Shown: piece by piece, positions 5,425-50,447 of the stretch | Layout: the number at the start of each line of letters is the position of its first letter | Position numbering within the stretch: position 1 is the stretch's first letter | NCBI GenBank assembly: GCA_041660605.1 | Contig: JBAZWB010000002.1 | Span: forward strand, 1,431 to 65,430 | Length of the DNA stretch: 64,000 bases | Direction: 5' to 3' | From: Patescibacteria group bacterium | Lineage (GTDB): Bacteria; Patescibacteriota; Patescibacteriia; UBA10025; JAHIVO01 | Program-made: the position numbers and the translations under genes | Notes under the pieces: generated by a model | Seen by the model: only the letters and a program-made list of their open reading frames with translations | The model's database searches: none | What the model was told of the DNA's origin: nothing

Positions 5425-6603
5425 CTAGACATTAAAATCAACTGTCGTGCCATTTTCGTTTGTAATAACAGGATACCTGCCAGACAAATCCCACGATTTC
5501 GGAGAAACTAAACCATCAATCGTAACCGTTTTTAATACTTCAGATGTTGTCTCAGGGCTATAAAGACGATACTTAGTTTGATTCCCTTCTATCTCCCCGT
5601 ATAGAATTTGCCACTTTCCATCAGGGCTTGCTCCATTGTGCGGATTGCACGTTTCATTGATGTAATCATATCCTCCCCACTCGCCTTTCGGACTTCCCAC
5701 TGTTTCTTCGGTCTTTGTCTTTAGATTAATAAATGATATTGTCGAAAACGATCCACAACCTTCTCCGTACGGTACAGCAACTAAAACGTCATGTCCACTA
5801 TCCCAAATTATATTGTCAAAAAGAGTGGTTGAAACATGATGAGCTGATTTGTATATACTGATCGGGTCTTCGTTTGTAAAAGAATTACTTGCAATATCAT
5901 ACACGATCCCCCGGGACTCAAGTGGCTGTGGACTCACAAGTCCTGGTTCAAACGCTTGAGAATGAATATCAAATTTACCGATTTCAATTATTATTTTTGA
6001 TTGGTTAATCGATGAGTTTACATTATATACCTGTTCAAAAATCTCACTGCCAACTACCCAAGGGGAAACATTAGGAAGCTTAGTTAGGACTAGAGTGCTA
6101 GTATTAAATAAGTAAAACTCTGGATTAACACCAGTCTCATACTCTATATCCTGATCACCAAAACTATCAAAACGAGTAGTTTTAGTTTCTCCTTTTTTCC
6201 AAAAAAGTAATCCATAGCGCGTCGCCTGAACGTGATACGTACTAGCATCAAACCCAACGTCTAACGATTCTGCTAGAGTAGCAGACAAGTAATGATATAG
6301 TTTGCCATTTTTATAATAAAAATTATAATTACTCCAGGGCGCTTCTTCATGATAATAAGATTGAAATTCACCTGTCACAGTATCACCAGCAGGGTTACTT
6401 GCATTTGTCGCAACATTTGTATTTTGTGCAGCTGCGTTAGTATTCAGATTTGTATTTCGAACAGTGGCGTTCTTATTTACTATTGTTAAAGTCGAGTCAT
6501 CATGAACAAACGCCGCATAAATTCCTACCCCGATAGCTAAAACAACCACGATGATAATCAGCAAAGGGGTTATTTTTATTGAATTCTTCTGTGGAGTTTC
6601 CAT
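5425..6603 (-). CDS. membrane-anchored (signal-anchor) extracytoplasmic protein, hypothetical; Asn/Thr-rich linker
   Basis: 392 aa; METPQKNSIKITPLLIIIVVVLAIGVGIYAA... ; N-terminus paralogous (nucleotide level) to ORF 7502-9778. Confidence 0.7.
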   Translation of the reverse strand: METPQKNSIKITPLLIIIVVVLAIGVGIYAAFVHDDSTLTIVNKNATVRNTNLNTNAAAQNTNVATNASNPAGDTVTGEFQSYYHEEAPWSNYNFYYKNGKLYHYLSATLAESLDVGFDASTYHVQATRYGLLFWKKGETKTTRFDSFGDQDIEYETGVNPEFYLFNTSTLVLTKLPNVSPWVVGSEIFEQVYNVNSSINQSKIIIEIGKFDIHSQAFEPGLVSPQPLESRGIVYDIASNSFTNEDPISIYKSAHHVSTTLFDNIIWDSGHDVLVAVPYGEGCGSFSTISFINLKTKTEETVGSPKGEWGGYDYINETCNPHNGASPDGKWQILYGEIEGNQTKYRLYSPETTSEVLKTVTIDGLVSPKSWDLSGRYPVITNENGTTVDFNV

Positions 6604-6612
6604 ATATTTAAT

Positions 6613-7542
6613 TTATTTGTTACCAAAATACATTGTTATATAACTGGTCACTTCCGGAACATCATATTCCCCTGTCACCTCAGCACTATCGCTTGAATCA
6701 AGTAACTGGTAATTGCCCACTTCACGAAGTTGTAAATATTTAAGTACTGCCCGTACGGTCTGAGGGGAATCAACAAAGAGTTGGTTTACTAAGTCAGGAT
6801 TCATCTGTTGCAATAATGGAATGTTGACTCCATTCTGCCTCATCGCTTCTTCATGTGAAACATAATGAGCAAAATCCACACTTGCCAGGACTAATGATCG
6901 GATAGGAAGTATTTCGTTAAGCGCTGTGGCCAATGCGTCAATTGACTCGTTACTGGTGTTGGCCTGGACTGTAATCGGGATTATTCTCGCGCCTGGAAAA
7001 CTTCGGCGAATAAATGGCACTAATCCGTTTATTGAATGTTCAGCAGTAAATATTTTCTCATCAACCTGAATAACGCTTCTGCCTAACAATTCGTTTATAA
7101 TATCCGAAGTTGGTTCAACTTTTCCATATGGCGTATCCCAAGAAGCTTCTGAAGTAGCTAAGTGATAATAACTGCGATTCATATGATCAGGGCCAATTAG
7201 CACAATTGTATCATATTGCTCTCGGGCACCTAGCGTACCGAAAAAATTACCTAATTTATGATTAGCCAATAAATGATGCGGTACGATCCCTGCCGATACT
7301 GAATCTAGTTCTAAAGTGCCGTCAGCTCCCTCGTATCCGCGATCGTAAACATCAGATTTTAAGAAAAATGAACGATGCGCCAATTCATTTGATGCGTTTA
7401 CTGGTCCCTGATTTATGTTGGCTACAATATCTGAATTATTAACCAGCGCCCAGGCTGTGAAACCGCCAGCAATCAAACCAGCAAGCAGCAACACTATAAG
7501 CTTAGTGAAGCGCACCGCCCCACTCAACCACGGTAAACCCAT
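6613..7542 (-). CDS. Memo-like / AmmeMemoRadiSam-system protein B family protein with N-terminal TM anchor
   Basis: 309 aa; Memo family motifs GIVPHH, IVLIGPDH, EHSINGLVPF, DFAHY; start overlaps upstream gene by 41 nt. Confidence 0.65.
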   Translation of the reverse strand: MGLPWLSGAVRFTKLIVLLLAGLIAGGFTAWALVNNSDIVANINQGPVNASNELAHRSFFLKSDVYDRGYEGADGTLELDSVSAGIVPHHLLANHKLGNFFGTLGAREQYDTIVLIGPDHMNRSYYHLATSEASWDTPYGKVEPTSDIINELLGRSVIQVDEKIFTAEHSINGLVPFIRRSFPGARIIPITVQANTSNESIDALATALNEILPIRSLVLASVDFAHYVSHEEAMRQNGVNIPLLQQMNPDLVNQLFVDSPQTVRAVLKYLQLREVGNYQLLDSSDSAEVTGEYDVPEVTSYITMYFGNK

Positions 7543-9778
7543 ATCGTTGTGGTGTTTTAATATTTAATGGTTCAACTGAATAAGGAGATTCAAGCGGCTG
7601 ATAGTCCATGAACACTCGGATAATAGAATCAGGCGCAGGCGCAACTGTTAAAGGGGCAAGTTTCTCAAATGCGGACTGATCAACAAATGTAATAAAGTAG
7701 TACGGACTATCCTGCAACTTCGGCACCCAAAAGTTTAAAAAGTCCGATTTTTCTTGCGCATTAAGGCCTAATAATGTCAGCTTATCCTGTAAAAGTGCAG
7801 CTACTTCGGTATTTTTTACGACAAAACCCTGCTTAGGCATTTCATAATTAAAACCGAATCCTTCCCAGAAAAGATATGGATAAGTTGCCATACCATCATA
7901 TTCCAGCTCCCCATTTGGGTGAGCTGTAACATTCCACCCGCCGTTTGGATAAACCGGATCAGTCAAAGAAAAGCCGCCGTTTGGAGCCACCTGGACATTT
8001 ACCTTAGTTGTTTGCTCAGGATACAAATAAATGACGGGCTTGCCGCACTCCACTGCGGGCAGAAAAGACACTTGTTTGAAGCGCACCCAATGGTCAAACG
8101 GATCCTTCCAATAGAAGAATGGATGCGAAGCGGTAAACGTTTCATAATCAGGCTTTGTATCTTCCTGCGGTAAATAAAATTGATCGTAAGTTTCCCTTAA
8201 TACTTCATTATTTTTATCAATGTATTCATAAACTTTATCCCCGGTACTGGTCTTGCCTGCGGCCTTCAGTTTGTCCAGTCCGCCCATTTCTTCCTCAGTG
8301 AAGATGGCGTGACAAGTACTACTGCCGCATCCGCCAGTCGGTTCATTAAAAGTATATTCAGCTGAATTTGAATTCCCGTCGCTCCAAGTAATTTCCGGGA
8401 TAAAACTGTTTGAAGACGAGAAATGCTCACGCTCTGCAAAATCTTTTATAAATTTAAGTTTGAGGTGGTATAGCCTTACCATGCCGTCCGGCATAACGAT
8501 GAAATAACAATTATACTGGGGATCGAAATATACTGCTCCCATTGAGGCATCAGTAAACACTGCCTGGGCTTGAGGATATTCAGTAGAACGCTTTTTAAGG
8601 TCGAATATTTCGGCGGCTAAATCAACCTTTGAATTAGGAATATCTATCACTGTTGGATAATCTAATCCAGAAATTGTAGAGGCAATATCATATATAAATG
8701 GAATTGTAAAATATGAAAGATTATCAGAATATTTTTCAAGATAGGTTAAGGACAATTTATCAGGATCGTAAACAACTCTATATAGATCCCGCCACCCCAT
8801 TTCCCCAAATTGCAAAATAACAACCAAATAATCACCGGCATACCTACCATTAGCGATTTCGCCTTCTTTATAATATTGGCGAAACCCATAAGAACCATCC
8901 AGACTTTCGATAACTGGATCAATTATATTTAATTCTATAGGTTCCTTTAGCCAGTTGATTTTCAATGCATATCCGTCGTTAGCTGAAAAAGATGTTGTAT
9001 TTTTTACTGCTGGAATAGATAACAAGGGCATCTTTTCAATAAATTTTACACTTTTTAAAATATCATTAATTACTCCTGCTTGTGTGGTTAATGATCTAAC
9101 AGAACCAGAAAAGTTAATTTCATAAACCCGATCCCCGCCATCAATAAAACCCCATAAATCAGTATAATCCTGGTGCGTTTCCGCTATGTTTAAAATAAAA
9201 ATTTTATTTTCTCCCTCAAACGCAACTGGCTCATTAAAAAGAAATTCTGTTGAACGATTGCTTTTGTACTTTTCAACCCACTGCGCAAGCGTATCATGGC
9301 TGTCGTTTTTATGATAAATTACACTTAAATTAAGGTAATATCTGTCTTGAGAAGTACCATATTGTCCATATGCTGAAAATAATCCATCCCCGTCATTCAA
9401 GCCCATGCCCGATTCATTAAAAGTCCAATCCGTTGGGATATCTAATGATAAACCATGGTCTCCGTGCTGGTACTTTATCGTTTGCCATTTTGTTGATTCA
9501 GAAGCGGCAGTTGTATCATGCGGCGCTACAATCACCGTTGGATTTACCTCAGAATTCACGGGGACATTTATATTGGTAATTTCATTAATATTTTGTTCAA
9601 CCGTATTTACATTGATATTAATGTTTGTATTTCTAACTCCGGTATTTTTATTTGCAAGTTTCGACGTCGAATCATCATGGACAAGCGCCGCATAAATCCC
9701 TACCCCGATAGCTAAAACAACCACGATAATAATCAGCAGTGGCGCAAATTTTAAAGAATGCTTCTGTGGTGTTTCCAT
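7502..9778 (-). CDS. large membrane-anchored extracytoplasmic protein (758 aa), hypothetical
   Basis: signal-anchor METPQKHSLKFAPLLIIIVVVLAIGVGIYAA then Asn/Thr-rich linker; long uninterrupted ORF. Confidence 0.75.
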   Translation of the reverse strand: METPQKHSLKFAPLLIIIVVVLAIGVGIYAALVHDDSTSKLANKNTGVRNTNININVNTVEQNINEITNINVPVNSEVNPTVIVAPHDTTAASESTKWQTIKYQHGDHGLSLDIPTDWTFNESGMGLNDGDGLFSAYGQYGTSQDRYYLNLSVIYHKNDSHDTLAQWVEKYKSNRSTEFLFNEPVAFEGENKIFILNIAETHQDYTDLWGFIDGGDRVYEINFSGSVRSLTTQAGVINDILKSVKFIEKMPLLSIPAVKNTTSFSANDGYALKINWLKEPIELNIIDPVIESLDGSYGFRQYYKEGEIANGRYAGDYLVVILQFGEMGWRDLYRVVYDPDKLSLTYLEKYSDNLSYFTIPFIYDIASTISGLDYPTVIDIPNSKVDLAAEIFDLKKRSTEYPQAQAVFTDASMGAVYFDPQYNCYFIVMPDGMVRLYHLKLKFIKDFAEREHFSSSNSFIPEITWSDGNSNSAEYTFNEPTGGCGSSTCHAIFTEEEMGGLDKLKAAGKTSTGDKVYEYIDKNNEVLRETYDQFYLPQEDTKPDYETFTASHPFFYWKDPFDHWVRFKQVSFLPAVECGKPVIYLYPEQTTKVNVQVAPNGGFSLTDPVYPNGGWNVTAHPNGELEYDGMATYPYLFWEGFGFNYEMPKQGFVVKNTEVAALLQDKLTLLGLNAQEKSDFLNFWVPKLQDSPYYFITFVDQSAFEKLAPLTVAPAPDSIIRVFMDYQPLESPYSVEPLNIKTPQRYGFTVVEWGGALH

Positions 9779-9808
9779 AAATTTATTTAATTTAAAAATT
9801 CTTAATTT

Positions 9809-19488: not shown

Positions 19489-21400
19489 CGCTATTGTTCA
19501 AAAGACTCCAGTTATGGAAAAAGCTGTCCTTGGTAAAATATTTTTCACCAGATAAAGGGTCTAGGGTGATGATCTTGGTGGGGTTATCCGCCGAGCCGAT
19601 AAAGCCGATAACCAGGCGCGTGTGCTCGCCGTTAATGGCCACCACGGTTCCGCCTTGCGGAGTTTTCCAGTCAATGCGCGTGCCGCTGCCCGCCGTACCC
19701 CAGACAATCACCGGGTTGCCTTTCTTGATTTCCGAGGTTAAATCCGCCAGGCTGCCGTCGGTAAAAGCCCGGGCAGTGCGGTAAGCGCGGGCAGCCTGGG
19801 CGATCGGCTGCCAGTAAACGCCGTAGCCGGTGGACGGCTGGTGCCCGTCAATATCGCCGACAAAAGCCAGATTAGGATTGCCCCAGACGCCGTCCGATTT
19901 TGGCGTGGTATCAAAGCCAATGGCGTCAATCAAAGTGGCTTCTGAAACGTCCACTCCCCGGAATTTTAGAGCCATCACTAAGGTGGCCACTTCACAGCTT
20001 AAATTATGCTCCTGCCGGTGGAAAGCGACATTCAATTTAGTAACGGAAAGCTCCGTGGTGAAAGAATATTCATATTTTTCTTCCGAAGCGTAACCTGCCC
20101 CAGCCTTAACGCCCGATGCCAGCGAAAATGCGTAGGCGGTATTATAGCTGAGCGGTGCCGTCGGCGTAAAAATCATGGCATTGCCATCCCAGCTGAATAC
20201 TCCCTCAGTCGCGGGTGAAATAGAAAACTTGCCCTCCGCGGATTTTTTATCAACCGCCTGGTCAAAGGTTGTTTTAATGGCGCTGTTAATCCCAATGCCG
20301 GAATATCCATTGTCGGGAAAGGCTTCAGAAACACGTACCGGCCCTAATGTCTTAAACTGATGCACGGAATCCTTCTCCAGATAGCCACCGTCGAAAGTTT
20401 TAGTGCCGGCGGCCAGAGTGACCGTATATTCCGTGTCTTTCTTCAGGGCGGCTGACTGAAAAGTTATTGTTTTATAGTCGTCGGTTTTCCACTGGCCTTC
20501 TACTGCCGGCTCTATCTTAATATTATTGCTAAATGAATCCATGTCCACATTTTTGTCCAAAGTTATGGAGACTGACTGCCCAAGGGAAACATTGTCACCG
20601 GTCGGAGAAAAATCAACAATGCCCGGGGCCTCCTGCACCTGCCATTCAGTTTCCTTGATTAACTCCGGCTCCGCCTGATAGCCAACCTCATCGGTGCCAA
20701 AAGTATAACGAATATTTTTTTTGAAAATTTTAAAAGTGTACTTCTGGCCTTGCAACAGATGCTCCTGGGGTTTAACCGTAAATATTTTTCCGCCATTATC
20801 GCTGGTTACTTCCATCTCAGCCTCCGGGACCAGACTGAACTGATACTCTGTCAACTTTTTACTGTTTTTATCCAGGGTGATCTCCCAGACAACTTCCGGA
20901 CTGATCGGCTGATCGTTGGCAGGTGAAATAGAATCTATTTTCGGCGCATCTTCAACCTGAAAAGTATAAGTGTAACTTTTTGACTGCCAAAATGAAGGCA
21001 GGATGCTTTTTACATTTGAAACAACAACTTCATAAGTTGTCCCGGGTTTCCAGGTTAGCTCCGGTCGGAAGACGATAGATCTGGATAGATGATTAGTAAA
21101 TAAATAGCGGCCATATTCCGTCTCACCATATACTTCGGGCGTTACTTCAATTTTCAGATTTCTGACCACCGGCAGGTTAAAATGAAATTCCAGGGTAGAA
21201 TCGGTGGTTACGAGGCCATTCTCCATCTTCATAACCAAAGATGGTTTTGGTGTCTGTACAAAATATAAATAGCCAATCATAACAAAAAAAAGTATTATAC
21301 CAATAATACTCCAAAATAGTGTTATTTTTCTGGTTTTGATTGATTTTTGTTTTTTATTTTGGCCAATATTTAACATGCTAATGAATAAATTATAACACAA
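19472..21400 (-). CDS. large surface protein: signal-anchor, tandem Ig-like (SbsA-Ig-like) repeats, C-terminal C39-like cysteine peptidase domain
   Basis: 642 aa; repeats with ISPANDQPISPE / FSPTGDNVSLGQ / FPDNGYSGI motifs; C-terminus HNLSCEVATLVMAL ... GEHTRLVIGFIG. Confidence 0.75.
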   Translation of the reverse strand: MCYNLFISMLNIGQNKKQKSIKTRKITLFWSIIGIILFFVMIGYLYFVQTPKPSLVMKMENGLVTTDSTLEFHFNLPVVRNLKIEVTPEVYGETEYGRYLFTNHLSRSIVFRPELTWKPGTTYEVVVSNVKSILPSFWQSKSYTYTFQVEDAPKIDSISPANDQPISPEVVWEITLDKNSKKLTEYQFSLVPEAEMEVTSDNGGKIFTVKPQEHLLQGQKYTFKIFKKNIRYTFGTDEVGYQAEPELIKETEWQVQEAPGIVDFSPTGDNVSLGQSVSITLDKNVDMDSFSNNIKIEPAVEGQWKTDDYKTITFQSAALKKDTEYTVTLAAGTKTFDGGYLEKDSVHQFKTLGPVRVSEAFPDNGYSGIGINSAIKTTFDQAVDKKSAEGKFSISPATEGVFSWDGNAMIFTPTAPLSYNTAYAFSLASGVKAGAGYASEEKYEYSFTTELSVTKLNVAFHRQEHNLSCEVATLVMALKFRGVDVSEATLIDAIGFDTTPKSDGVWGNPNLAFVGDIDGHQPSTGYGVYWQPIAQAARAYRTARAFTDGSLADLTSEIKKGNPVIVWGTAGSGTRIDWKTPQGGTVVAINGEHTRLVIGFIGSADNPTKIITLDPLSGEKYFTKDSFFHNWSLLNNSGVVVE

Positions 21401-29842: not shown

Positions 29843-31645
29843 TTATTTATTTAACGGCTTTTTTAGTATTTTAACCACCGGATCGCTTTTTCGGCTGATC
29901 ACCATGATAGTAACGGCAAAACCTATGGATAGAGCCACGCCGGCGATAATTACCGCGTAAAAAGAGGAGAAAGAGCCGATGTTAGATGAAGCAATTTGCT
30001 TGCCTACCGTACTGGTATCGCTGGCCTCCCGAAAAAATAAATCCTCCGTCATCTGCGAATACGTCATGTTTCCGGTAAGCTTAGTCAGAAAATACTTTTT
30101 CTTGGACGGCTGCAGCAGCGCCTCTCCCTGGTCATCAAGGGCCAGGTTCTCCAGGCTTTTTTTATCTATCCAATTTGCATAAGTCGTAGAAAAGCCCGGC
30201 AAGGTTTTTTTGCCATCGGCTATTACATACAAAAGTATATTGACGGTATCCGAGCTGGCTGAATATATCGGCGTTATTTCAACATTTTGGTAATCAATAT
30301 TTTCTCCGCTAACCTCTTCCGTCAGGGAAGAATCAAAATGGGCCAAAAATAAAGTATCGGTGGCCGCCGCGAGGGCCTGACCGCCCAGTGCCGACTGATA
30401 ATCCGATTTAATGTCAGCGTCTGTCTTTTTTTCGCTGGAGATCATCACTTCATCCAATACGGCGTTGGCTGGTGAATTATAACCGTCATTTACCCGTTGG
30501 CCGATATACAGCTTCCCGCCTTTGGCTGAGGACATGCCCCAGGTAGAACCGCCATAGCTCGTTTCCATGGTTTGGGGGATTCCGTTTATATAAATAACCG
30601 GCGAATCACTCAGAGACCAGGTGGCCGCAATATGGTACCACTGGCCGCTATCCCAGCTTAAGGGCGTCTGATCGGAAGTCTTCCAAGCAACAAAAGCACC
30701 ATCTTTATAAGTTATAAATTGAAGATTATCATGACTGCTATCCTTGCCGTGCCGCAATTCAAAAACATCACTGCCATTGACATCCGTAACGTTTAATAAC
30801 GAATTATATCCCAGATTCATTGATGACCAGATACTGTCCGGCTTGACCCATAACTCTACGCTGCCGCTGTCGGAATTAAAAAAATTTGCCGAATCATTGC
30901 TTAATACATCCGCAGATCCTACATGCACGCCATTATTCAGCCGGCCAGTTGAATAGGTGGGGAGGAGGCCAGAGCTCTCCTGGGTTTGCGAAGTTATGGA
31001 GGAAATCTTCATCGGGAAAACTAATTTTTTCGTGGTAAAAGAGATATCCACCGGAGTGGCGTGCCCCTGGCGCAGCTGTTGGGAGACATCAGCCCAGGCC
31101 AGGCTCTCGGGATTAATTTTCATGGCGACAAAATACCAGTTATTTTCAATATAACTATCAAGCACATAGCTGGCGGAAGCAGGAAAATCATAGCCATTAT
31201 CCTGCAGCCACTTTGCCAGCGAGTTCTTATCGGTTGACGATAAAACCGTCACATCGTAATAATCAACTTTTTTTGTTTCTACCACCGTTACCCCAGAAGC
31301 CTCCTGCTTTACCGAACCGCTAAGGCCAAAAACATCCGTTGCGTAATTATAAACCGAGCCAGTGGCTGCTTCCAGCGAGGTAAAAATTTCATCAGAACCC
31401 TTTTTGACCGTTGGCTTGGAGGGAGTCGGCACTACCCAGCCGAAATCTTTGGCATTGCCCTGGAAGGAAATGGAAAGAATCAGATGCTCCACGCCCTGAT
31501 CATAAAAAACAACCGCCCGCTGGTCTGTTTCCTGTACCCAATAATCCGGAGGCGGCATGATCATGCCATCAGCAGCGGCAATTTGCGGGAAAATAAAAAT
31601 ACTGATTAGGATTAAAAACGCAAATTTTTGGACTGACGCCTTCAT
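29843..31645 (-). CDS. secreted, C-terminally TM-anchored protein with central LamG-like (concanavalin A-like lectin) domain; flanks resemble DUF2330
   Basis: signal peptide MKASVQKFAFLILISIFIFPQIAAA; VELWVKPDS...WYHIAATW LamG_3-like block; C-terminal hydrophobic anchor. Confidence 0.6.
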   Translation of the reverse strand: MKASVQKFAFLILISIFIFPQIAAADGMIMPPPDYWVQETDQRAVVFYDQGVEHLILSISFQGNAKDFGWVVPTPSKPTVKKGSDEIFTSLEAATGSVYNYATDVFGLSGSVKQEASGVTVVETKKVDYYDVTVLSSTDKNSLAKWLQDNGYDFPASASYVLDSYIENNWYFVAMKINPESLAWADVSQQLRQGHATPVDISFTTKKLVFPMKISSITSQTQESSGLLPTYSTGRLNNGVHVGSADVLSNDSANFFNSDSGSVELWVKPDSIWSSMNLGYNSLLNVTDVNGSDVFELRHGKDSSHDNLQFITYKDGAFVAWKTSDQTPLSWDSGQWYHIAATWSLSDSPVIYINGIPQTMETSYGGSTWGMSSAKGGKLYIGQRVNDGYNSPANAVLDEVMISSEKKTDADIKSDYQSALGGQALAAATDTLFLAHFDSSLTEEVSGENIDYQNVEITPIYSASSDTVNILLYVIADGKKTLPGFSTTYANWIDKKSLENLALDDQGEALLQPSKKKYFLTKLTGNMTYSQMTEDLFFREASDTSTVGKQIASSNIGSFSSFYAVIIAGVALSIGFAVTIMVISRKSDPVVKILKKPLNK

Positions 31646-39493: not shown

Positions 39494-39535
39494 TATATAA
39501 GTTGTGGATTGTTAATTGAGAATTTAAAAACTCTT

Positions 39536-39608
39536 TGGGTCGTGCAGGGCTCGAACCTGCGACACCCTGCTTAAAAGGCAGGTGCTCTACCAACTGAGCT
39601 AACGACCC
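39536..39608 (-). tRNA. tRNA-Lys (anticodon UUU), no encoded CCA
   Basis: manual fold GGGTCGT-TA-GCTCAGTTGGTAGAGC-A-CCTGC-CTTTTAA-GCAGG-GTGTC-GCAGGTTCGAGCCCTGC-ACGACCC-A. Confidence 0.9.
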
Positions 39609-39853
39609 AGAGAGTTTTTAATTAATCCTCCAATATAATGTTTACTTTTGTGCTTTTTAATTTCTTTTTCAAACCGCAACGCTTCGGTTTTAGTAGGAAA
39701 GGATTTCTTATAAACCAGACTTAGCGATGAACGAGCCCTTGTCGCTCGCGAACGGCCCTGAAAATGACGTTTCAATCTGTCGGTCAAATTACTCGTACTA
39801 CCTGTATAATACCCTAAATCTTTTTTGCTTTGAAGGATTTAGACATAATGCAT
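39599..39853 (-). pseudogene. GIY-YIG nuclease (YhbQ-like) gene interrupted by in-frame TAA at conserved Tyr of YVYIL (TAA at 39839-39841)
   Basis: translation MHYV*ILQSKKDLGYYTGSTSNLTDRLKRHFQGRS...SLSLVYKKSFPTKTEALRFEKEIKKHKSK; 3' end overlaps tRNA-Lys 5' end by 10 nt. Confidence 0.65.
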
Positions 39854-40131: not shown

Positions 40132-40184
40132 ATTATATTAAAAACAGAACCTTAATATAAAAACAGCACTAGGAGGTGCCTATA

Positions 40185-41099
40185 ATGAAACGCAGTATTG
40201 TTTTCTCATTTTTCATCATTTGCCTATTTTGGACAGGCTTAATGGCGACTGATTCAACGACTGCTAAGCTCTCAATAACCTGCTATGGCCAGCTGCAATT
40301 CATCAGTAAAGACCCTGTATTCCAATACCAGGGTTTCAATATGCGCCGATTGCGGCCATCGGTTATATACACACAGAACGATAAGCTATCTTTCACCGGC
40401 GAAGTGCAGATCGGCAGCGGCCTGAAACTTCTCAGGGCGCACTTTGATTACCAGGCGATTCCCGGCTACTTGTATCTCAAAGGCGGACAATTTCCAAACC
40501 GTTTGATGTTCTTCGAGTCATCGCCTACCCGCAAGTACTTCGTCCTCGTCAGTCACCTTGACTACTATATCGAGGACCAGAATCCGACGGGTATAGCAGC
40601 CTACGGCCACTACAAGTTCTTTGCTTGGGAGTTACAAGTAACAAACGGGACTGTTACCGGAGCACCAGACAATAACGAACAGAAAGAAGTAAACTTCTGG
40701 ACCGAATGGAAAATCTCGCACGCCATTTTGTTAAGCACCTGCCTACAGCGCGGCAGACAACTAATTGACGAAAGGACAACAGCCTGGATTCAACTGAAAA
40801 CCGAGTACCTTGGACTCAACAGTGAGATCGGGGCAATTAACCAATCTTACAGCACCTCTACCTGCGGATTCTACCTCAATAACAAATTCCAAATCAGTCA
40901 ATTTGTGGCAATCGCCGGCAGAGTCGCCTTGCCCGTTGATCACAGTGAAGTGGTCATGGCTAACGGCTATATCGCCCGGAATGATCTGGAATTTACGCCA
41001 GGAGTGATTGTCAGCAAGGACAATTTCACGGCCAAGCTGAATACCATTATAAGCAGAAACGAACCAAGGTATGCAGCGGAAATTCAGTTCATTTTCTAA
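40185..41099 (+). CDS. predicted outer-membrane beta-barrel-like protein (signal peptide; C-terminal ...YAAEIQFIF)
   Basis: AGGAGG SD 40171-40176; start ATG 40185 preferred over GTG 40176; signal peptide MKRSIVFSFFIICLFWTGLMA; alternating-hydrophobic C-terminus ending in Phe. Confidence 0.6.
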   Translation: MKRSIVFSFFIICLFWTGLMATDSTTAKLSITCYGQLQFISKDPVFQYQGFNMRRLRPSVIYTQNDKLSFTGEVQIGSGLKLLRAHFDYQAIPGYLYLKGGQFPNRLMFFESSPTRKYFVLVSHLDYYIEDQNPTGIAAYGHYKFFAWELQVTNGTVTGAPDNNEQKEVNFWTEWKISHAILLSTCLQRGRQLIDERTTAWIQLKTEYLGLNSEIGAINQSYSTSTCGFYLNNKFQISQFVAIAGRVALPVDHSEVVMANGYIARNDLEFTPGVIVSKDNFTAKLNTIISRNEPRYAAEIQFIF

Positions 41100-41211
41100 C
41101 GTTTCAAGTGCTATTGTTATCGAACAAACAACGCGGCCAGCTCTCCCCCAGGGAAAGTTGGTCGTTTTTATAGTGGACAAGCTGTGAATACTATTGTGTA
41201 TATAATGAGCC

Positions 41212-41258: not shown

Positions 41259-42620
41259 ATGGCCAACCAAAATATAGAAAAATTACCGCCCCAGAACCTG
41301 GAGGCCGAAAAGTCAGTTTTAGGCTCACTTTTGATTGATAAAGACGCCATTATCAGTATAGCCGACATTCTCATGCCTGATGACTTTTATAAAGACATGC
41401 ATGGTGATATTTTTGATGCCATGCTGGAATTGTTTGAAAACCGCGAACCGATAGACGTCGTTTCCCTGTCCAATAAACTGGAAGAAAAAGGACAGCTGGA
41501 AACTATCGGGGGACGAAGTTTCCTAGCCAGCCTGGCCAATATGGTGCCCAGCTCTTCCCACGTGGTCAATTATGCCCAAATCGTCCAGAAAAAAGCGACC
41601 CTCAGGAGATTACTGCAGGTGGCTTCGGAGATTACCAGCCTTGGCTATCAGGAAACGGAGAGCATGGAATCCCTGCTGGATAAGGCGGAACAGAGAATTT
41701 TCGGGGTCTCGCAGAAATACCTGAAACAGAACTTTATTCCCATTAAATCCGTTCTTACCGACGCCTTTGACCGCATCGACGAACTGCATCGCGAATCGGG
41801 CAAATTAAGGGGCATACCGACCGGATTTGGCGCCCTGGATAATATCTTAGCCGGACTACAGAAATCCGACCTGATAATTCTGGCCGCCAGGCCTTCAATC
41901 GGTAAAACCACTCTCGCCCTGGATATTGCCCGCCAAGTGGCAGTCAATAACAAAGTGCCGGTAGGCATCTTCAGCTTGGAAATGTCCAAGGAGCAGCTAG
42001 TTGACCGCATGCTATGCGCCCAGGCCGGCGTGGAGCTATGGAAAATGAGGACAGGCAGACTGTCCGAAGATGAAGATTTTTCCAATATCGGCCATGCCAT
42101 GGGCGCCCTGTCCGAAGCGCCGATTTTCATCGACGATTCCGCCACCGCCAATATTATGGAAATCAGGACCAAGGCCAGGCGCCTGCAAGCTGAACATAAT
42201 CTCGGCCTAATAGTGCTGGACTATTTACAGCTGATGCAGGGAACCCACGGCATAGAGAACCGCGTGCAGGAAATATCAGAAATTACTAGATCCTTGAAGG
42301 CAGTAGCGCGCGAATTGAACATACCGGTTTTGGCTTTATCACAGTTATCCCGCGCCGTGGAATCACGCACCCCTCCGATACCCAAGCTGGCCGACCTCCG
42401 TGAATCTGGCTCAATCGAGCAGGACGCTGACATTGTGATGTTCATTTATCGCGAAGGCATGTACAAAAAAGACATTGACCCCTCCAGGAAAAACATCGCG
42501 GAAATTCTTATTGCCAAGCATCGCAACGGCCCGACCGGGCAGATCCAGCTGTTTTTCGATGAAAATAAAGTGAGCTTCAAAAATCTTGAGCGTAAAATGG
42601 ACGTTGAACCGGCTTTTTAA
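41259..42620 (+). CDS. dnaB: replicative DNA helicase DnaB
   Basis: 453 aa; N-terminal DnaB domain LEAEKSVLGSLLID; Walker A GKTTLAL; RecA-like C-term. Confidence 0.95.
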   Translation: MANQNIEKLPPQNLEAEKSVLGSLLIDKDAIISIADILMPDDFYKDMHGDIFDAMLELFENREPIDVVSLSNKLEEKGQLETIGGRSFLASLANMVPSSSHVVNYAQIVQKKATLRRLLQVASEITSLGYQETESMESLLDKAEQRIFGVSQKYLKQNFIPIKSVLTDAFDRIDELHRESGKLRGIPTGFGALDNILAGLQKSDLIILAARPSIGKTTLALDIARQVAVNNKVPVGIFSLEMSKEQLVDRMLCAQAGVELWKMRTGRLSEDEDFSNIGHAMGALSEAPIFIDDSATANIMEIRTKARRLQAEHNLGLIVLDYLQLMQGTHGIENRVQEISEITRSLKAVARELNIPVLALSQLSRAVESRTPPIPKLADLRESGSIEQDADIVMFIYREGMYKKDIDPSRKNIAEILIAKHRNGPTGQIQLFFDENKVSFKNLERKMDVEPAF

Positions 42621-42709: not shown

Positions 42710-43009
42710 ATGTTTAATAAAATCAAGCAATTTAAAGAACTCCGCGACCAGGCCACGGAGATGAAAAAAATGCTGGCCCAGGAAACGGTCCACGCTGATG
42801 CCGCTCATGGAAAAATAAATGTGGTAATGGATGGCAATATGGAAATACTGTCAGTTGAAATAAATCCAGAACTGCTAAGCGTAGAAAAAAAAGAAAATTT
42901 AGAATCCGCAGTGCGCGACTCAGTCAATGAAGCTGTAAAAAAAGCCCAACGGGTCATGGCGCAGAAAATCCAGAGTATGGGCGGTTTAAATATGCCAGGA
43001 CTATCCTAA
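42710..43009 (+). CDS. ybaB: nucleoid-associated protein YbaB/EbfC
   Basis: 99 aa; typical YbaB size/sequence; classic ybaB-recR pairing. Confidence 0.85.
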   Translation: MFNKIKQFKELRDQATEMKKMLAQETVHADAAHGKINVVMDGNMEILSVEINPELLSVEKKENLESAVRDSVNEAVKKAQRVMAQKIQSMGGLNMPGLS

Positions 43010-43012
43010 ATT

Positions 43013-43618
43013 ATGGATACCTACCCTGATTCAATTAATAAATTAATAGAAAAATTTTTCAGCCTGCCCGGCATCGGCCCAAAAGCCGCCGAGCGCATTG
43101 TTTTTTATTTGCTGAAACAACCGCCAGCCGTCATTAATGATTTAATGAGCAACCTTGCCAACCTGAAAAAAGAAATAGTAATCTGCCAGCAATGTTTCAA
43201 CGTTTCCGCAAAAAATCCCTGCGAATTTTGCCAAGACGCTAAGCGCGATAAAACAATCATTTGCGTGATTTCTGAACCCCAGGATCTGCAGATCATTGAA
43301 AAGACTGGAGAATACCGCGGACTATATCATATCCTCGGGGGCAACCTGAATCCAGTGGAAGGCATTACTCCTGAAAAACTGCATATTGAACAGCTGATCA
43401 ATAGGATCCAGCAAAAATCCGCGGTTAAAGAAATAATTATCGCCACCAACCCGGATCTGGAAGGAGAATCAACGGCCATGTATCTGACGCGGAAATTAAA
43501 AGATTTTCCGGTGAAAATCACCCGCCTGGCCAAAGGCCTGTCCATGGGTTCAACGATAGAATATGCTGACGAAGTCACCATGTCAAACGCGCTGAAGGGG
43601 CGCCAGGAAATAAAATAA
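43013..43618 (+). CDS. recR: recombination protein RecR
   Basis: HhH N-term LPGIGPKAAERI, C4 zinc finger CQQCFN...CEFC, Toprim domain. Confidence 0.93.
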   Translation: MDTYPDSINKLIEKFFSLPGIGPKAAERIVFYLLKQPPAVINDLMSNLANLKKEIVICQQCFNVSAKNPCEFCQDAKRDKTIICVISEPQDLQIIEKTGEYRGLYHILGGNLNPVEGITPEKLHIEQLINRIQQKSAVKEIIIATNPDLEGESTAMYLTRKLKDFPVKITRLAKGLSMGSTIEYADEVTMSNALKGRQEIK

Positions 43619-46090: not shown

Positions 46091-46837
46091 TTATTTAGTT
46101 AATATTTTCGGGCCATTTTTGGTAATGGCAATCGTGTGTTCAAAATGGGCTGATAAAGAATGGTCAACCGTTATGACGGTCCAGCCGTCCGTCTCCGTTA
46201 TTACTTCCGGCCCCCCGATATTGACCATGGGCTCCAGGGCCAGCACCATGCCTTCTTCAAGTATGATGCCTTGATGCTTATCCCCAAAATTAGGTACCCG
46301 CGGCTCTTCATGCACCTCATAACCGACACCATGACCAACCAGGCTGCGTACCACGGAAAAATTATATTTCTCCACGAATGTCTGAATCGCATAGCCGATG
46401 TCGCCGATCCGGCTTCCTGGCCTGGCATTTTTTATTCCTTCATAAAGTGCCTGTTCTGTCACCTTAATCAGTTTCTTAGCTTCGGGGGGGACTTCACCGA
46501 CCGGCACGGTAACTGCCATATCAGTAAAAAAATCCTGATACTCTACTCCGATATCAATGCCGACAATATCGCCATTCTTAAGCTTGCGCCCGGCCCTTGG
46601 AATGCCATGAACCACCCCATGATTTATGGAGATGCAGGTGGCGTTCGGATAGCCTTCGAAGCCTTTGAACGACGGCTTGGCTCCTGATTTTAGTATTAAA
46701 GATTCAGCCAGTTTATCTAATTCTAAAACGTCTTTGCCGGGCTTGGCATTTTTTGCCACTTCATAGACGACTCCGGCTAAAATCTTGCCTGATCTGGCTA
46801 GCAATTGGATTTCTTCTGGCTTCTTTTTGGTAATCAT
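46091..46837 (-). CDS. map: type I methionine aminopeptidase
   Basis: 248 aa; pita-bread fold metal ligands (D..D..H..E..E pattern), ...HFEHTIAIT. Confidence 0.93.
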   Translation of the reverse strand: MITKKKPEEIQLLARSGKILAGVVYEVAKNAKPGKDVLELDKLAESLILKSGAKPSFKGFEGYPNATCISINHGVVHGIPRAGRKLKNGDIVGIDIGVEYQDFFTDMAVTVPVGEVPPEAKKLIKVTEQALYEGIKNARPGSRIGDIGYAIQTFVEKYNFSVVRSLVGHGVGYEVHEEPRVPNFGDKHQGIILEEGMVLALEPMVNIGGPEVITETDGWTVITVDHSLSAHFEHTIAITKNGPKILTK

Positions 46838-47502
46838 TTTTTTGCTATTTTTTTCAATACTTCTTCAGTCACCTGATTTATCGGCGGTTCTCCGTTTATT
46901 AAAATTAAAACTCCTTTTTTTCTGTAATAATCAATGACTGGTTTTGTTTGTTTATTGAAAATTTCCAGCCGTTTCGCAATAGCACTGGGCTTGTCGTCGT
47001 CCCGCTGATAGATCTCTCCGCCGCACTTGGGACAAACCCGCTGCCTGGCTTTTAAATTCACTCCCTCAATGAATATCCTCTTGCATTGGCGGCAGGTGCG
47101 CCTTAATTCCAGCCTCCGGATGGTGGTTTTTTTGGATATTGGCAGATAAAAAACATGTGAAATCGTTCTTCCGATTTGTACCAGTATCTTATTTAAAGCC
47201 CGGGCTTGTTTTAAATTTCGCGGATACCCGTCGAACAAAAGGCCCTTATTTTTTGGAGTATTTTTTACTGCCTGTCCGACAATTTTTATGACAAAATCCG
47301 AGGGTACCAGGTTGCCTTTGATGTTAATTATTCTATTGATTCTGCGGCCAAGGGCGCTTTTTTGGCGGGCCAGCTTTCGGAAGATGACGCCTGTCCCGAT
47401 ATAATGCAATCTGAATTTTTTAACTAAAAATTCCGCCTGCGTGCCTTTGCCAGACCCCTGCGGGCCGAGAATAATAACATTAAATTCTTTTCCCTTAATC
47501 AT
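46834..47502 (-). CDS. adk: adenylate kinase (zinc-lid type)
   Basis: GPQGSGKGTQA P-loop; lid CRQCKRIF...CPKCGGE. Confidence 0.93.
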   Translation of the reverse strand: MIKGKEFNVIILGPQGSGKGTQAEFLVKKFRLHYIGTGVIFRKLARQKSALGRRINRIINIKGNLVPSDFVIKIVGQAVKNTPKNKGLLFDGYPRNLKQARALNKILVQIGRTISHVFYLPISKKTTIRRLELRRTCRQCKRIFIEGVNLKARQRVCPKCGGEIYQRDDDKPSAIAKRLEIFNKQTKPVIDYYRKKGVLILINGEPPINQVTEEVLKKIAKK

Positions 47503-48088
47503 TTTGTATCTGCTGGATAATTTTATTAGTACCCTCCCGCAATTCTTCGATTGATCTGATATTTACCAGCATATAGTCGGCCATGGCAATCGGTCCGCCT
47601 TTTTCTATTTTTTCGATCTCGGCATAATCCCTGGACTCGGCTTCGGTACGTGAAAAAGAACGATACTTCATTTTCGGGTCATCCTTGTACCTTGAGCTCC
47701 TGTCCTCCAGCCGCGCGTATCTTAATTTTGGCGGGGCGAAAACGGACACTACTAAAAAACCGTCTCCATACTTTTTTTTGAATTCCTTGTATTCCGACCA
47801 GCTGTACAACCCATCACAAATAACCGGGCGGCTATTAGCCAGCATTTTTTCAATTTTTGGAAAATTTAAAATCGCAAAAGCGGCTGGGCCGTAATTTTTT
47901 CTGAATTCTTCTCGTATCGGCCTTTCATTTTCCTCTTTTGGCTCAAGGCCGCGGTGCTTAACTTCATCAAGCGTGATTTGGCCTAATCTCAGATATTGAT
48001 AGCCGGCTTTGGTGAAAACATCCGCCACTTCGCTTTTTCCCGAACCGCACATGCCCACTAAAGCCACGATTTTTTGTTCATTTTTCAT
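47495..48088 (-). CDS. P-loop nucleotide/nucleoside kinase-family protein (dephospho-CoA kinase-like), exact activity unclear
   Basis: VALVGMCGSGKSEVADVF Walker A; 197 aa. Confidence 0.45.
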   Translation of the reverse strand: MKNEQKIVALVGMCGSGKSEVADVFTKAGYQYLRLGQITLDEVKHRGLEPKEENERPIREEFRKNYGPAAFAILNFPKIEKMLANSRPVICDGLYSWSEYKEFKKKYGDGFLVVSVFAPPKLRYARLEDRSSRYKDDPKMKYRSFSRTEAESRDYAEIEKIEKGGPIAMADYMLVNIRSIEELREGTNKIIQQIQND

Positions 48089-49940: not shown

Positions 49941-50447
49941 TTACTGCCTTAATTTCTTGATTTGGTCAACTGTCTTCATCTCCCCCAGCGCCAAAATGGC
50001 AGCTTTGACATTATTAATCTTATTCTTGGTGCCCATAATTTTCGAGACCACGTTCTTAATGCCGGCTAATTCCATTACCGCCCTGAGTGGCCCGCCAGCG
50101 ATTACTCCGGTGCCGGAAGGTGCGGGCTTGAGAAGTATTTTGGCCGCGCCATATTTATAGCGTATAGTGCACGGCAATGAATCGTTGACAATATTTACCT
50201 TAACGAGATTTTTCTTGGCTGATCTGACAGCTTTATTTATGGCCATAGAGACATCTGCGCCTTTTCTCAGGCCCATGCCTACCTGTCCTTTTTTATCACC
50301 AACTACCACGCAGGCCCGGAAACTCATTCTTTTGCCGCCAGCCATGACGCGCGTCACCCGTGCGATATCAATTAATTTCTGCTCGAAATCATCATCCTTC
50401 TTTTGATGCCTGCGATCACCGCCTTTATTATCGCCTCTTCTTGCCAT
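49941..50447 (-). CDS. rpsE: 30S ribosomal protein S5
   Basis: 168 aa; S5 dsRBD + C-terminal domain. Confidence 0.93.
   Translation of the reverse strand: MARRGDNKGGDRRHQKKDDDFEQKLIDIARVTRVMAGGKRMSFRACVVVGDKKGQVGMGLRKGADVSMAINKAVRSAKKNLVKVNIVNDSLPCTIRYKYGAAKILLKPAPSGTGVIAGGPLRAVMELAGIKNVVSKIMGTKNKINNVKAAILALGEMKTVDQIKKLRQ

Follow-up and report, generated by a model that had tools for sequence, protein, structure and literature searches.

Bacteria of the Candidate Phyla Radiation (CPR, or Patescibacteria) are treated as monoderms from which the outer membrane has been lost together with its porins, a view which feeds models of the transition from diderm to monoderm cells. A 64,000-nucleotide stretch of a Patescibacteria genome (contig JBAZWB010000002.1, positions 1,431 to 65,430 of the forward strand; hereafter the window) raises the question of whether that view holds throughout the radiation, as it carries a gene, at 40185-41099 on the plus strand, which an original prediction made from the letters alone took to encode an outer-membrane-type beta-barrel. 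Does this gene encode a porin, does it belong to a CPR genome, and what could such a protein do there? We found that the predicted product has the fold of a bacterial porin, and that the gene is resident, vertically inherited and unusually fast-evolving at its locus; its site of action is a more tentative matter.

The AlphaFold2 model of the protein (P0001) has 16 beta-strands, with a predicted local distance difference test score (pLDDT) of 84.7 and a predicted template-modelling score (pTM) of 0.78. Between strands 5 and 6, DSSP analysis of the model places a 32-residue loop with two short helices (residues 103-134, at 40491-40586 on the plus strand), which comes after the family motif GQFxN and occupies the place of the L3 constriction loop in classical porins. 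When the model was compared with the PDB by Foldseek, the top matches were the 16-stranded porins OmpU, OmpC, OmpF, OmpK36, Omp-Pst1/2 and OmpM1, aligned over the full length at E values of about 1e-10, with template-modelling (TM) scores of 0.65-0.72 and about 10% identity. There were 195 matches at E<=1e-3, and among the 50 listed all are porins or porin-derived constructs. Against a viral structure library, the best match (E 1e-14) bears the annotation 'Phosphate-selective porin O and P'. An orthologue from a syntenic CPR genome (P0007) was modelled by AlphaFold2 with the same 16-strand fold and a helix-bearing loop after strand 5, and its top PDB match is OmpM1. Together with the homology to Porin_O_P described below, the modelling shows a 16-stranded beta-barrel of the bacterial porin superfamily, preceded by a Sec-type signal peptide, and so bears out the proposed outer-membrane-type barrel; the original prediction had named a non-barrel fold in structure prediction as the result that would tell against it, and a barrel was returned.

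The gene itself has the sequence marks of one with an exported product. It encodes 304 amino acids from an ATG start, with the stop codon (41097-41099) included in the coordinates above, and its Shine-Dalgarno site, AGGAGG as had been stated, was read from the sequence 8 nt 5' of the ATG (40171-40176, plus strand). An in-frame GTG at 40176 is an unlikely start because it falls inside that site. The predicted signal peptide, judged by hydropathy, by the equivalent segments of the family and by the model, comprises residues 1-21 (40185-40247, plus strand); the N-terminus reads MKRSIVFSFFIICLFWTGLMA and then, past the predicted cleavage site, TD, with a basic n-region, a hydrophobic core of 16 residues and a small residue at position -1. 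In the model, residues 2-19 form a detached helix and pLDDT is low at residues 20-23; strand 1 of the barrel begins about five residues past the signal peptide. A signal-like segment is present in every full-length homologue in the family alignment, ending A/G-x-A with D, Q or E after the cut, and the cleavage site was placed from this alignment. The signal peptide thus looks as cleavable as was first suggested, with the n/h/c layout of the Sec type. The N-terminus has no lipobox, and a lipoprotein was rejected on that ground. The mature protein of about 283 amino acids is rich in aromatic residues (F+Y+W 14.5%), and hydropathy analysis of the whole product found no long hydrophobic stretch other than the signal peptide.

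The pattern of residues along the strands is also that of a barrel in lipid. Strand positions predicted to face outward have mean Kyte-Doolittle hydropathies of +0.8 to +1.5 and those predicted to face inward have means of -0.6 to -1.2, and this holds in all 14 family members; the alternation is kept though the members are only about 25% identical. In the window protein, residues on one face of the strands are mostly L, I, F, A and V, those on the opposite face mostly Q, E, T and K; two arginines, R197 and R246, are invariant in the family alignment and predicted to face the lumen. As modelled, the protein has the chemistry of a lipid-embedded, water-filled barrel. A beta-pore-forming toxin was considered and rejected, the predicted barrel being monomeric with 16 strands rather than an assembled stem.

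Sequence searches place this barrel in a small family. The protein has no Pfam match even at E<=10 and no NCBIfam match; a word-indexed protein search recovered it alone and, with a family profile, only three proteins, and a search of PDB sequences with that profile found nothing. It took an exhaustive HMMER search to bring the family to light: among 1.84 billion cluster representatives this recovered 13 further clusters (E 9e-53 to 3e-5), so that the open reading frame (ORF) is not a chance one; with the window protein these make a family of 14 clusters at 50% identity. Most members are about 270-330 amino acids long, and two shorter ones (245 and 177 amino acids) are without the N-terminal part. 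The family alignment is marked by the motifs GQFxNP, NGTGxNxPDNNxxKD, QxGxQPxGxR, GWY, LTAR and QPN, and by invariant Gly, Arg, Asp and Asn residues; a near-invariant Gln stands in the last strand.

The nearest named relatives are the phosphate-selective porins OprP and OprO (Porin_O_P, PF07396). Two of the 14 members match PF07396 below threshold, at 13.8 and 16.9 bits where 20.9 are required, and the family profile matches a PF07396 protein, P0015 (which itself scores 49.3 bits on that model), at E 2e-6. In an hhalign comparison of the family with P0015 the probability was 97.3% (E 1.9e-11, 148 columns); the aligned columns include GQF..P and NG.G.N..D.N..K, and the family GQF is set against RAGQFKRPF of P0015. 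Both sides thus have the R.GQF..P motif before the L3 region, the NG.G.N..D.N..K motif and a 16-stranded barrel, but the window protein falls below the Pfam threshold, which members pass, its loops are minimal (about 283 residues when mature, against 370 positions in the Porin_O_P profile and 363 amino acids in P0015), and the lineage that carries it is regarded as lacking an outer membrane. These comparisons show the predicted protein to be a small and diverged porin-superfamily protein, closest to OprP/OprO and distantly homologous to them. What is new here is a branch of a known superfamily that Pfam does not see, in a lineage where it was not expected.

Other porins resemble it in structure. 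The trimeric porins of Proteobacteria (OmpF, OmpC, OmpU and OmpK36) gave the best structural matches and have the same number of strands and a loop with short helices between strands 5 and 6, but share about 10% identity and no sequence-level match with the window protein, whose loops are much shorter. OmpM1 of Veillonella parvula, also among the top structural matches, comes from Terrabacteria, the superclade that holds CPR; its surface-layer homology (SLH) tether is a feature that the window protein does not share, as the latter has no SLH domain by Pfam and no N-terminal extension. The SLH/porin system has been reported lost in CPR (bioRxiv 10.1101/2021.05.31.446380). Small porins of the Rhodobacter/Rhodopseudomonas blastica type (289 amino acids, PDB 1PRN) have a similar minimal 16-strand size and match P0007 in structure at E values of about 1e-7; they have no detectable sequence relationship with the window protein and, unlike it, are alphaproteobacterial outer-membrane proteins.

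One element of the original prediction drew no support from comparison within the family. The C-terminus was read correctly from the sequence (...PRYAAEIQFIF*, with YAAEIQFIF at its end), and its alternating hydrophobic residues with a terminal Phe had been taken as a recognition signature of the beta-barrel assembly machinery (BAM). We found that Phe is the last residue in only four of the family's 13 complete C-termini and I, K, L, P, Q or E in the rest, and that the syntenic orthologues end in ...MQVSVP and ...ALFNGTE; the last strand of the family is kept as a strand with its Gln. A terminal aromatic residue under no visible selection is weak evidence, from the alignment, against strict dependence on BAM.

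A neighbour-joining tree divides the family into two clades. Clade A holds the window protein, its two syntenic orthologues, P0004 (labelled Parcubacteria), P0002, P0003 and P0006; clade B holds P0005 and P0008-P0013, and two of its genomic contexts (L001 and L019) are compact translation-gene neighbourhoods resembling those of small genomes. Two members carry labels of diderm bacteria. P0009 lies on a 63-kb contig titled 'Nitrospinaceae bacterium' (JAJDBG010000018.1; L014/L021), in an island that is bounded by an integrase and a TrwC relaxase and carries a 1559-residue leucine-rich repeat protein and an IS200-type transposase; P0002, the closest relative of the window protein at 37% identity, lies on a 4-kb contig titled 'uncultured Gammaproteobacteria bacterium' (CAZJUO010000094.1; L004/L023). 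These labels may reflect mis-binning; alternatively, the family is truly present in diderms or on mobile elements. A degenerate two-motif pattern devised by hand, GQFxN-(56 aa)-D[DN]NxxK[DE], matches about half of the family at most. In 185,579 species-representative genomes it returned two true members, P0009 and P0002; over genomes and metagenomes together it recovered known members only, plus chance matches, four in metagenomes (L025-L028) and two in genomes (L022 and L024). A tblastn search of plasmid and phage collections found no family match. Members of the family are rare and scattered, and are not shown to be limited to CPR; exchange between CPR and diderm bacteria, possibly their hosts, is plausible.

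Does the gene then belong to a CPR genome? The window protein is identical to MFA6098762.1 of NCBI (locus tag WC808_04410), described as 'MAG: hypothetical protein [Patescibacteria group bacterium]', where MAG denotes a metagenome-assembled genome. The same protein is found in three assemblies, on contigs of 347 kb, 338 kb (MAG WCV50) and 960,449 bp, and the ribosomal protein S3 (rpS3) of the window was found on the same 960,449-bp contig. NCBI labels P0001, P0004, P0007 and P0018 as Patescibacteria or Parcubacteria. The rpS3 of the window matches Patescibacteria at up to 77% identity, Candidatus Kerfeldbacteria at 72% and Buchananbacteria and Falkowbacteria at about 60%; the named matches above 70% are to Patescibacteria group bacteria and Candidatus Kerfeldbacteria, with one labelled just 'bacterium'. 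The genes for S5 (49941-50447, minus strand) and L15 (49449-49931, minus strand) are 9 nt apart, so that no L30 gene lies between them, and L30 is likewise missing from this position in both syntenic genomes; the ribosomal-protein operon without L30 reported earlier is therefore real. The window also encodes a short zinc-type S14, a VirB2-like pilin (PF18895) of a type IV secretion system (T4SS), glycolysis genes, DnaK/GrpE/HrcA and many anchored proteins without known domains. With the NCBI labels, the rpS3 matches, the missing L30, the CPR-type T4SS pilin and the contig of about 960 kb, the gene content points to Patescibacteria/CPR, in line with the lineage first proposed, and within it to an ABY1/Kerfeldbacteria-like lineage of Parcubacteria.

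Synteny argues that the gene is native there. Two further loci, L010 (JAQULM010000001.1, 651 kb, labelled Patescibacteria) and L020 (a 23-kb JGI contig), share with the window the order asparaginyl-tRNA synthetase, P-type ATPase, T4SS pilin, tRNA-Lys, porin, dnaB, ybaB and recR, which continues through L21, DUF192, GT4, ruvX, map, adk, secY, L15 and S5. The tRNA-Lys(UUU) gene (39535-39609, minus strand; ARAGORN and Rfam) is the landmark 5' of the porin gene in all three, and has 93% DNA identity to its L010 copy; Rfam scans of the porin flanks returned this tRNA only. On the other side lie dnaB (41259-42620), ybaB (42710-43009) and recR (43013-43618), all on the plus strand, named from their ORFs and from the Pfam domains of the L010 and L020 orthologues; they are context, outside the porin unit. 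Flanking proteins are 44-81% identical to those of L010; DnaB is 80% identical to its L010 orthologue and 86% to that of L020, and YbaB and RecR are 53-67% identical to their orthologues. The porin is only 25.7% identical to its L010 copy and about 27% identical to its L020 copy, and there is no conservation upstream of the gene between the syntenic genomes. Because the same locus recurs in three diverged CPR genomes, with neighbours at 44-86% and the porin at about 25%, we consider the gene native and fast-evolving rather than part of a chimera; synteny in three genomes excludes a recent horizontal transfer or a chimeric assembly, and a prophage or plasmid cargo was rejected on core-gene synteny and the want of phage or plasmid matches.

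The gene is also dispensable. The L020 orthologue is frameshifted near 9880-9915, with its N-terminal half at 9519-9914 and its C-terminal half at 10001-10534 in another frame. The truncated 177-residue ORF of L020 is also found in two NCBI Patescibacteria MAGs, and the adjoining dnaB is intact; since the same truncated ORF recurs in independent assemblies, the L020 copy looks like a real pseudogene. The comparison of the three loci thus shows what appears to be a resident, vertically inherited, unusually fast-evolving and dispensable porin gene in this CPR lineage.

What is known of the envelope of such cells frames the question of function. Ultrasmall cells taken as CPR or DPANN by their size were seen by cryo-transmission electron microscopy without an outer membrane and attached to Gram-negative hosts, and bear a periodic outermost surface layer of unknown nature (PMC7906910); groundwater CPR cells are also without an outer membrane according to earlier work as cited there. 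Porins have been reported lost in the clade of Chloroflexi, CPR and Dormibacteraeota, and the ancestors of Terrabacteria, CPR included, have been inferred to be diderm (bioRxiv 10.1101/2021.05.31.446380). The T4SS of Patescibacteria is of monoderm type (PMC12102498). Within the 64-kb window, part of a genome of about 960 kb, we found no outer-membrane biogenesis gene and no BamA/Omp85, Skp/SurA or Lpt, and no paralogue of the porin.

The gene product is probably a functional, exported porin channel, because every family member keeps the alternation along the strands, the L3-type loop that folds inward and the conserved Arg, Gln and Gly residues that face the lumen. In the mechanism that we propose, the porin would be exported past the cytoplasmic membrane by its Sec-type signal peptide and would embed, as a passive diffusion channel, in a lipid layer outside that membrane; the barrel would reach the host outer membrane at the zone of attachment, or host-derived lipid, and would open a path for small solutes. 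That the target is the host outer membrane is a tentative and doubtful proposition. We prefer it by a narrow margin to an outer lipid layer of the CPR cell's own that has gone unrecognised because imaged CPR cells without an outer membrane sit on Gram-negative hosts, and because the gene is accessory (rare, single-copy and pseudogenised in a sister lineage) and diverges like a host-interaction protein. Taken as a whole, the statement that this is a native, fast-evolving porin channel, in a transcription unit of its own, acting at the host outer membrane or in host-derived lipid has, in our estimate, a little less than an even chance of being right.

Several points weigh against this proposal, and it needs to be read cautiously. 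We know of no bacterium that delivers a porin from outside into a second bacterium's outer membrane, and insertion through the lipopolysaccharide leaflet is unfavourable. No partner gene is conserved across the family loci, and no chaperone, delivery system or conserved partner stands beside the family genes at the loci compared. The AlphaFold2 alignment for the window protein comprised only 14 sequences. The frameshifted L020 copy means that the gene can be lost. With two members on contigs binned as Nitrospinaceae and Gammaproteobacteria, the family may be an ordinary porin family of diderms, of which the CPR copies could be drifting acquisitions. In its boldest form, an episymbiotic CPR bacterium without an outer membrane would export the porin into the outer membrane of its Gram-negative host where the two cells touch, render that envelope permeable and draw small periplasmic metabolites through it, which would make the protein a new kind of inter-bacterial effector; this form we regard as distinctly unlikely.

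Of the alternatives, the one that survives best is that this CPR clade has an outer lipid layer of its own, a relict or host-derived outer membrane, in which an ordinary porin is assembled by a BamA-type protein or spontaneously and serves solute uptake into a periplasm-like space. The normal porin features of the protein (its Sec signal peptide, hydrophobic belt and L3-type loop, and a last strand resembling a beta-signal and ending in Phe in the window protein) fit this explanation, as do the vertical inheritance of the gene across a deep divergence, the diderm ancestry inferred for Terrabacteria including CPR and the periodic outermost layer of ultrasmall cells cited above. Yet the imaged cells, likely CPR or DPANN, were without an outer membrane; a diderm ought not to be able to do without its only general porin, and this one is frameshifted in a sister genome and missing from nearly all related genomes, its clusters numbering 14 where related rpS3 sequences run to thousands. 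Nor do family members conserve an aromatic residue at the C-terminus, and no outer-membrane-related genes lie within the window. We consider an outer layer of the cell's own unlikely, with the host-directed porin only marginally ahead of it.

Less probable again is a relic, a porin acquired horizontally from a diderm which is functionless, persists by chance and is decaying. Such an origin would suit a superfamily that belongs to diderms, relatives binned as Nitrospinaceae and Gammaproteobacteria (one of them beside an integrase and a relaxase), the frameshift in L020 and the extreme divergence of the gene relative to its neighbours. The full-length frame of about 300 amino acids is nevertheless intact in both the window and L010 despite their identity of about 25%, the gene retains its strong Shine-Dalgarno site and a terminator, and the motifs, the invariant Gly, Arg, Asp and Asn residues and the 16-strand alternation are kept, which neutral decay would not keep. 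As the barrel architecture is preserved, a decaying relic appears improbable.

The original prediction had the porin gene heading an operon with dnaB, ybaB and recR. The adjacency on one strand is real and is kept in three genomes, with a spacer between porin and dnaB of 159 nt in the window and 136-160 nt across the three, which is what an operon tying the porin functionally to replication would lead one to expect; co-transcription is unlikely all the same. RNA folding of the spacer found a terminator-like element (41133-41171, plus strand), consisting of a 14-bp interrupted hairpin (41133-41165; stem GCGGCCAGCU.UCCC...GGGA.AGUUGGUCGU) and then a T-run, TTTTTAT. A simple consensus terminator scan did not flag this hairpin because its stem has an internal mismatch. 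At the same place L010 has GCCCCCG...CGGGGGC and then TTTTATTAT, and L020 has GCCTGCAA...TTGCAGGC and then TTTTCTTTC, both of them GC-rich hairpins, so that a hairpin and T-run follow the porin gene at all three loci and make it probable that the gene is transcribed as a unit by itself. When the intergenic regions of the three genomes were aligned, a conserved 20-nt box, TAGTGGACAAGCTGTGAATA, was also seen directly 5' of dnaB (41171-41190, plus strand), with the form TAGTGGACAA(G/A)(C/A)TGTG(A/C/T)ATA across the genomes (L010 about 11075-11095, L020 about 10600-10620). This box marks a separate predicted control region for dnaB. Within it, TGTGNATA resembles the DnaA-box consensus, TTATNCACA, and the box could be a DnaA-dependent control site for dnaB; it is probably not part of an oriC, as there is no GC-skew switch nearby. 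Family members outside the clade of the window protein have unrelated neighbours and no dnaB, and dnaB is intact in L020 where the porin gene is frameshifted. On these sequence signals the porin gene is probably monocistronic, and its adjacency to dnaB is a matter of conserved genome architecture; that it is the first cistron of a replication-linked operon is very improbable.

The weakest alternative, that a chimeric assembly or mis-assigned contig brought in a gene from a Gram-negative organism, could appeal to the MAG origin of the data and to the two relatives with diderm bin labels, but is scarcely credible given an identical protein in three assemblies (contigs of 347, 338 and 960 kb), CPR-type core genes on both flanks, the same arrangement in two other diverged CPR genomes and an unremarkable GC content (0.45 in the 2-kb bin that holds the gene against 0.44 for the whole window).

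Some further features of the window and of related loci were noted. Beside the tRNA-Lys landmark, a 62-codon ORF (39599-39787, minus strand) abuts and overlaps the tRNA gene, and its end, ...LVYKKSFPTKTEALRFEKEIKKHK, resembles the C-terminal half of small GIY-YIG nucleases; at L019 an intact 85-residue GIY-YIG gene (329-586) has the same placement relative to a tRNA-Asp (238-314). Further along the syntenic block, two genes of the window, a stand-alone one for an AAA/CoaE-like kinase (47495-48088) and adk (46834-47502), have as their counterpart in L010 a single fused gene of 409 residues (16697-17926); in the region compared (46834-48088) the kinase part is about 25% identical between the two genomes, and so as divergent as the porin is.

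The window also encodes several further proteins on the minus strand. Two of these, of 392 amino acids (5425-6603) and 758 amino acids (7502-9778), are membrane-anchored and have their first 40 or so residues in common (METPQK.S.K..PLLIIIVVVLAIGVGIYAA.VHDDST), with Asn/Thr-rich linkers next and no Pfam match; they have the appearance of surface-protein paralogues whose ectodomains were exchanged. Two others, of 1392 amino acids (12948-17126) and 584 amino acids (17593-19347), with a 155-residue ORF between them, have a near-identical, zinc-ribbon-like N-terminus, MPEQ(Q/R)P(I/T)N(R/Q)C..CG(Y/F)P(L/V)E(I/F)GEHDCPNAP, and nothing significant in Pfam. Secreted or anchored Peptidase_C39_2 proteins are encoded at 12023-12832 and 19472-21400, the larger with three Big_5 Ig-like domains. 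A 600-residue protein with DUF2330 and Laminin_G_3 domains (29843-31645) has a C-terminal membrane anchor, and a HEPN protein of the HEPN_Cthe2314 type (370-1005) lies at the window edge.

A structurally canonical porin at a core CPR locus implies either that some of the radiation has an envelope layer which has been missed, or that the porin acts for a cell with no outer membrane, for example on its host. If the genome encodes BAM machinery, the protein would be an ordinary one, yet the consequence for the envelope biology of CPR would be notable. If the porin is instead an effector delivered to the host, its rapid divergence and occasional loss would track host range; and if it acts at the host, it would offer a testable molecular handle on how nutrients pass across the envelope of Gram-negative hosts to obligate episymbionts.

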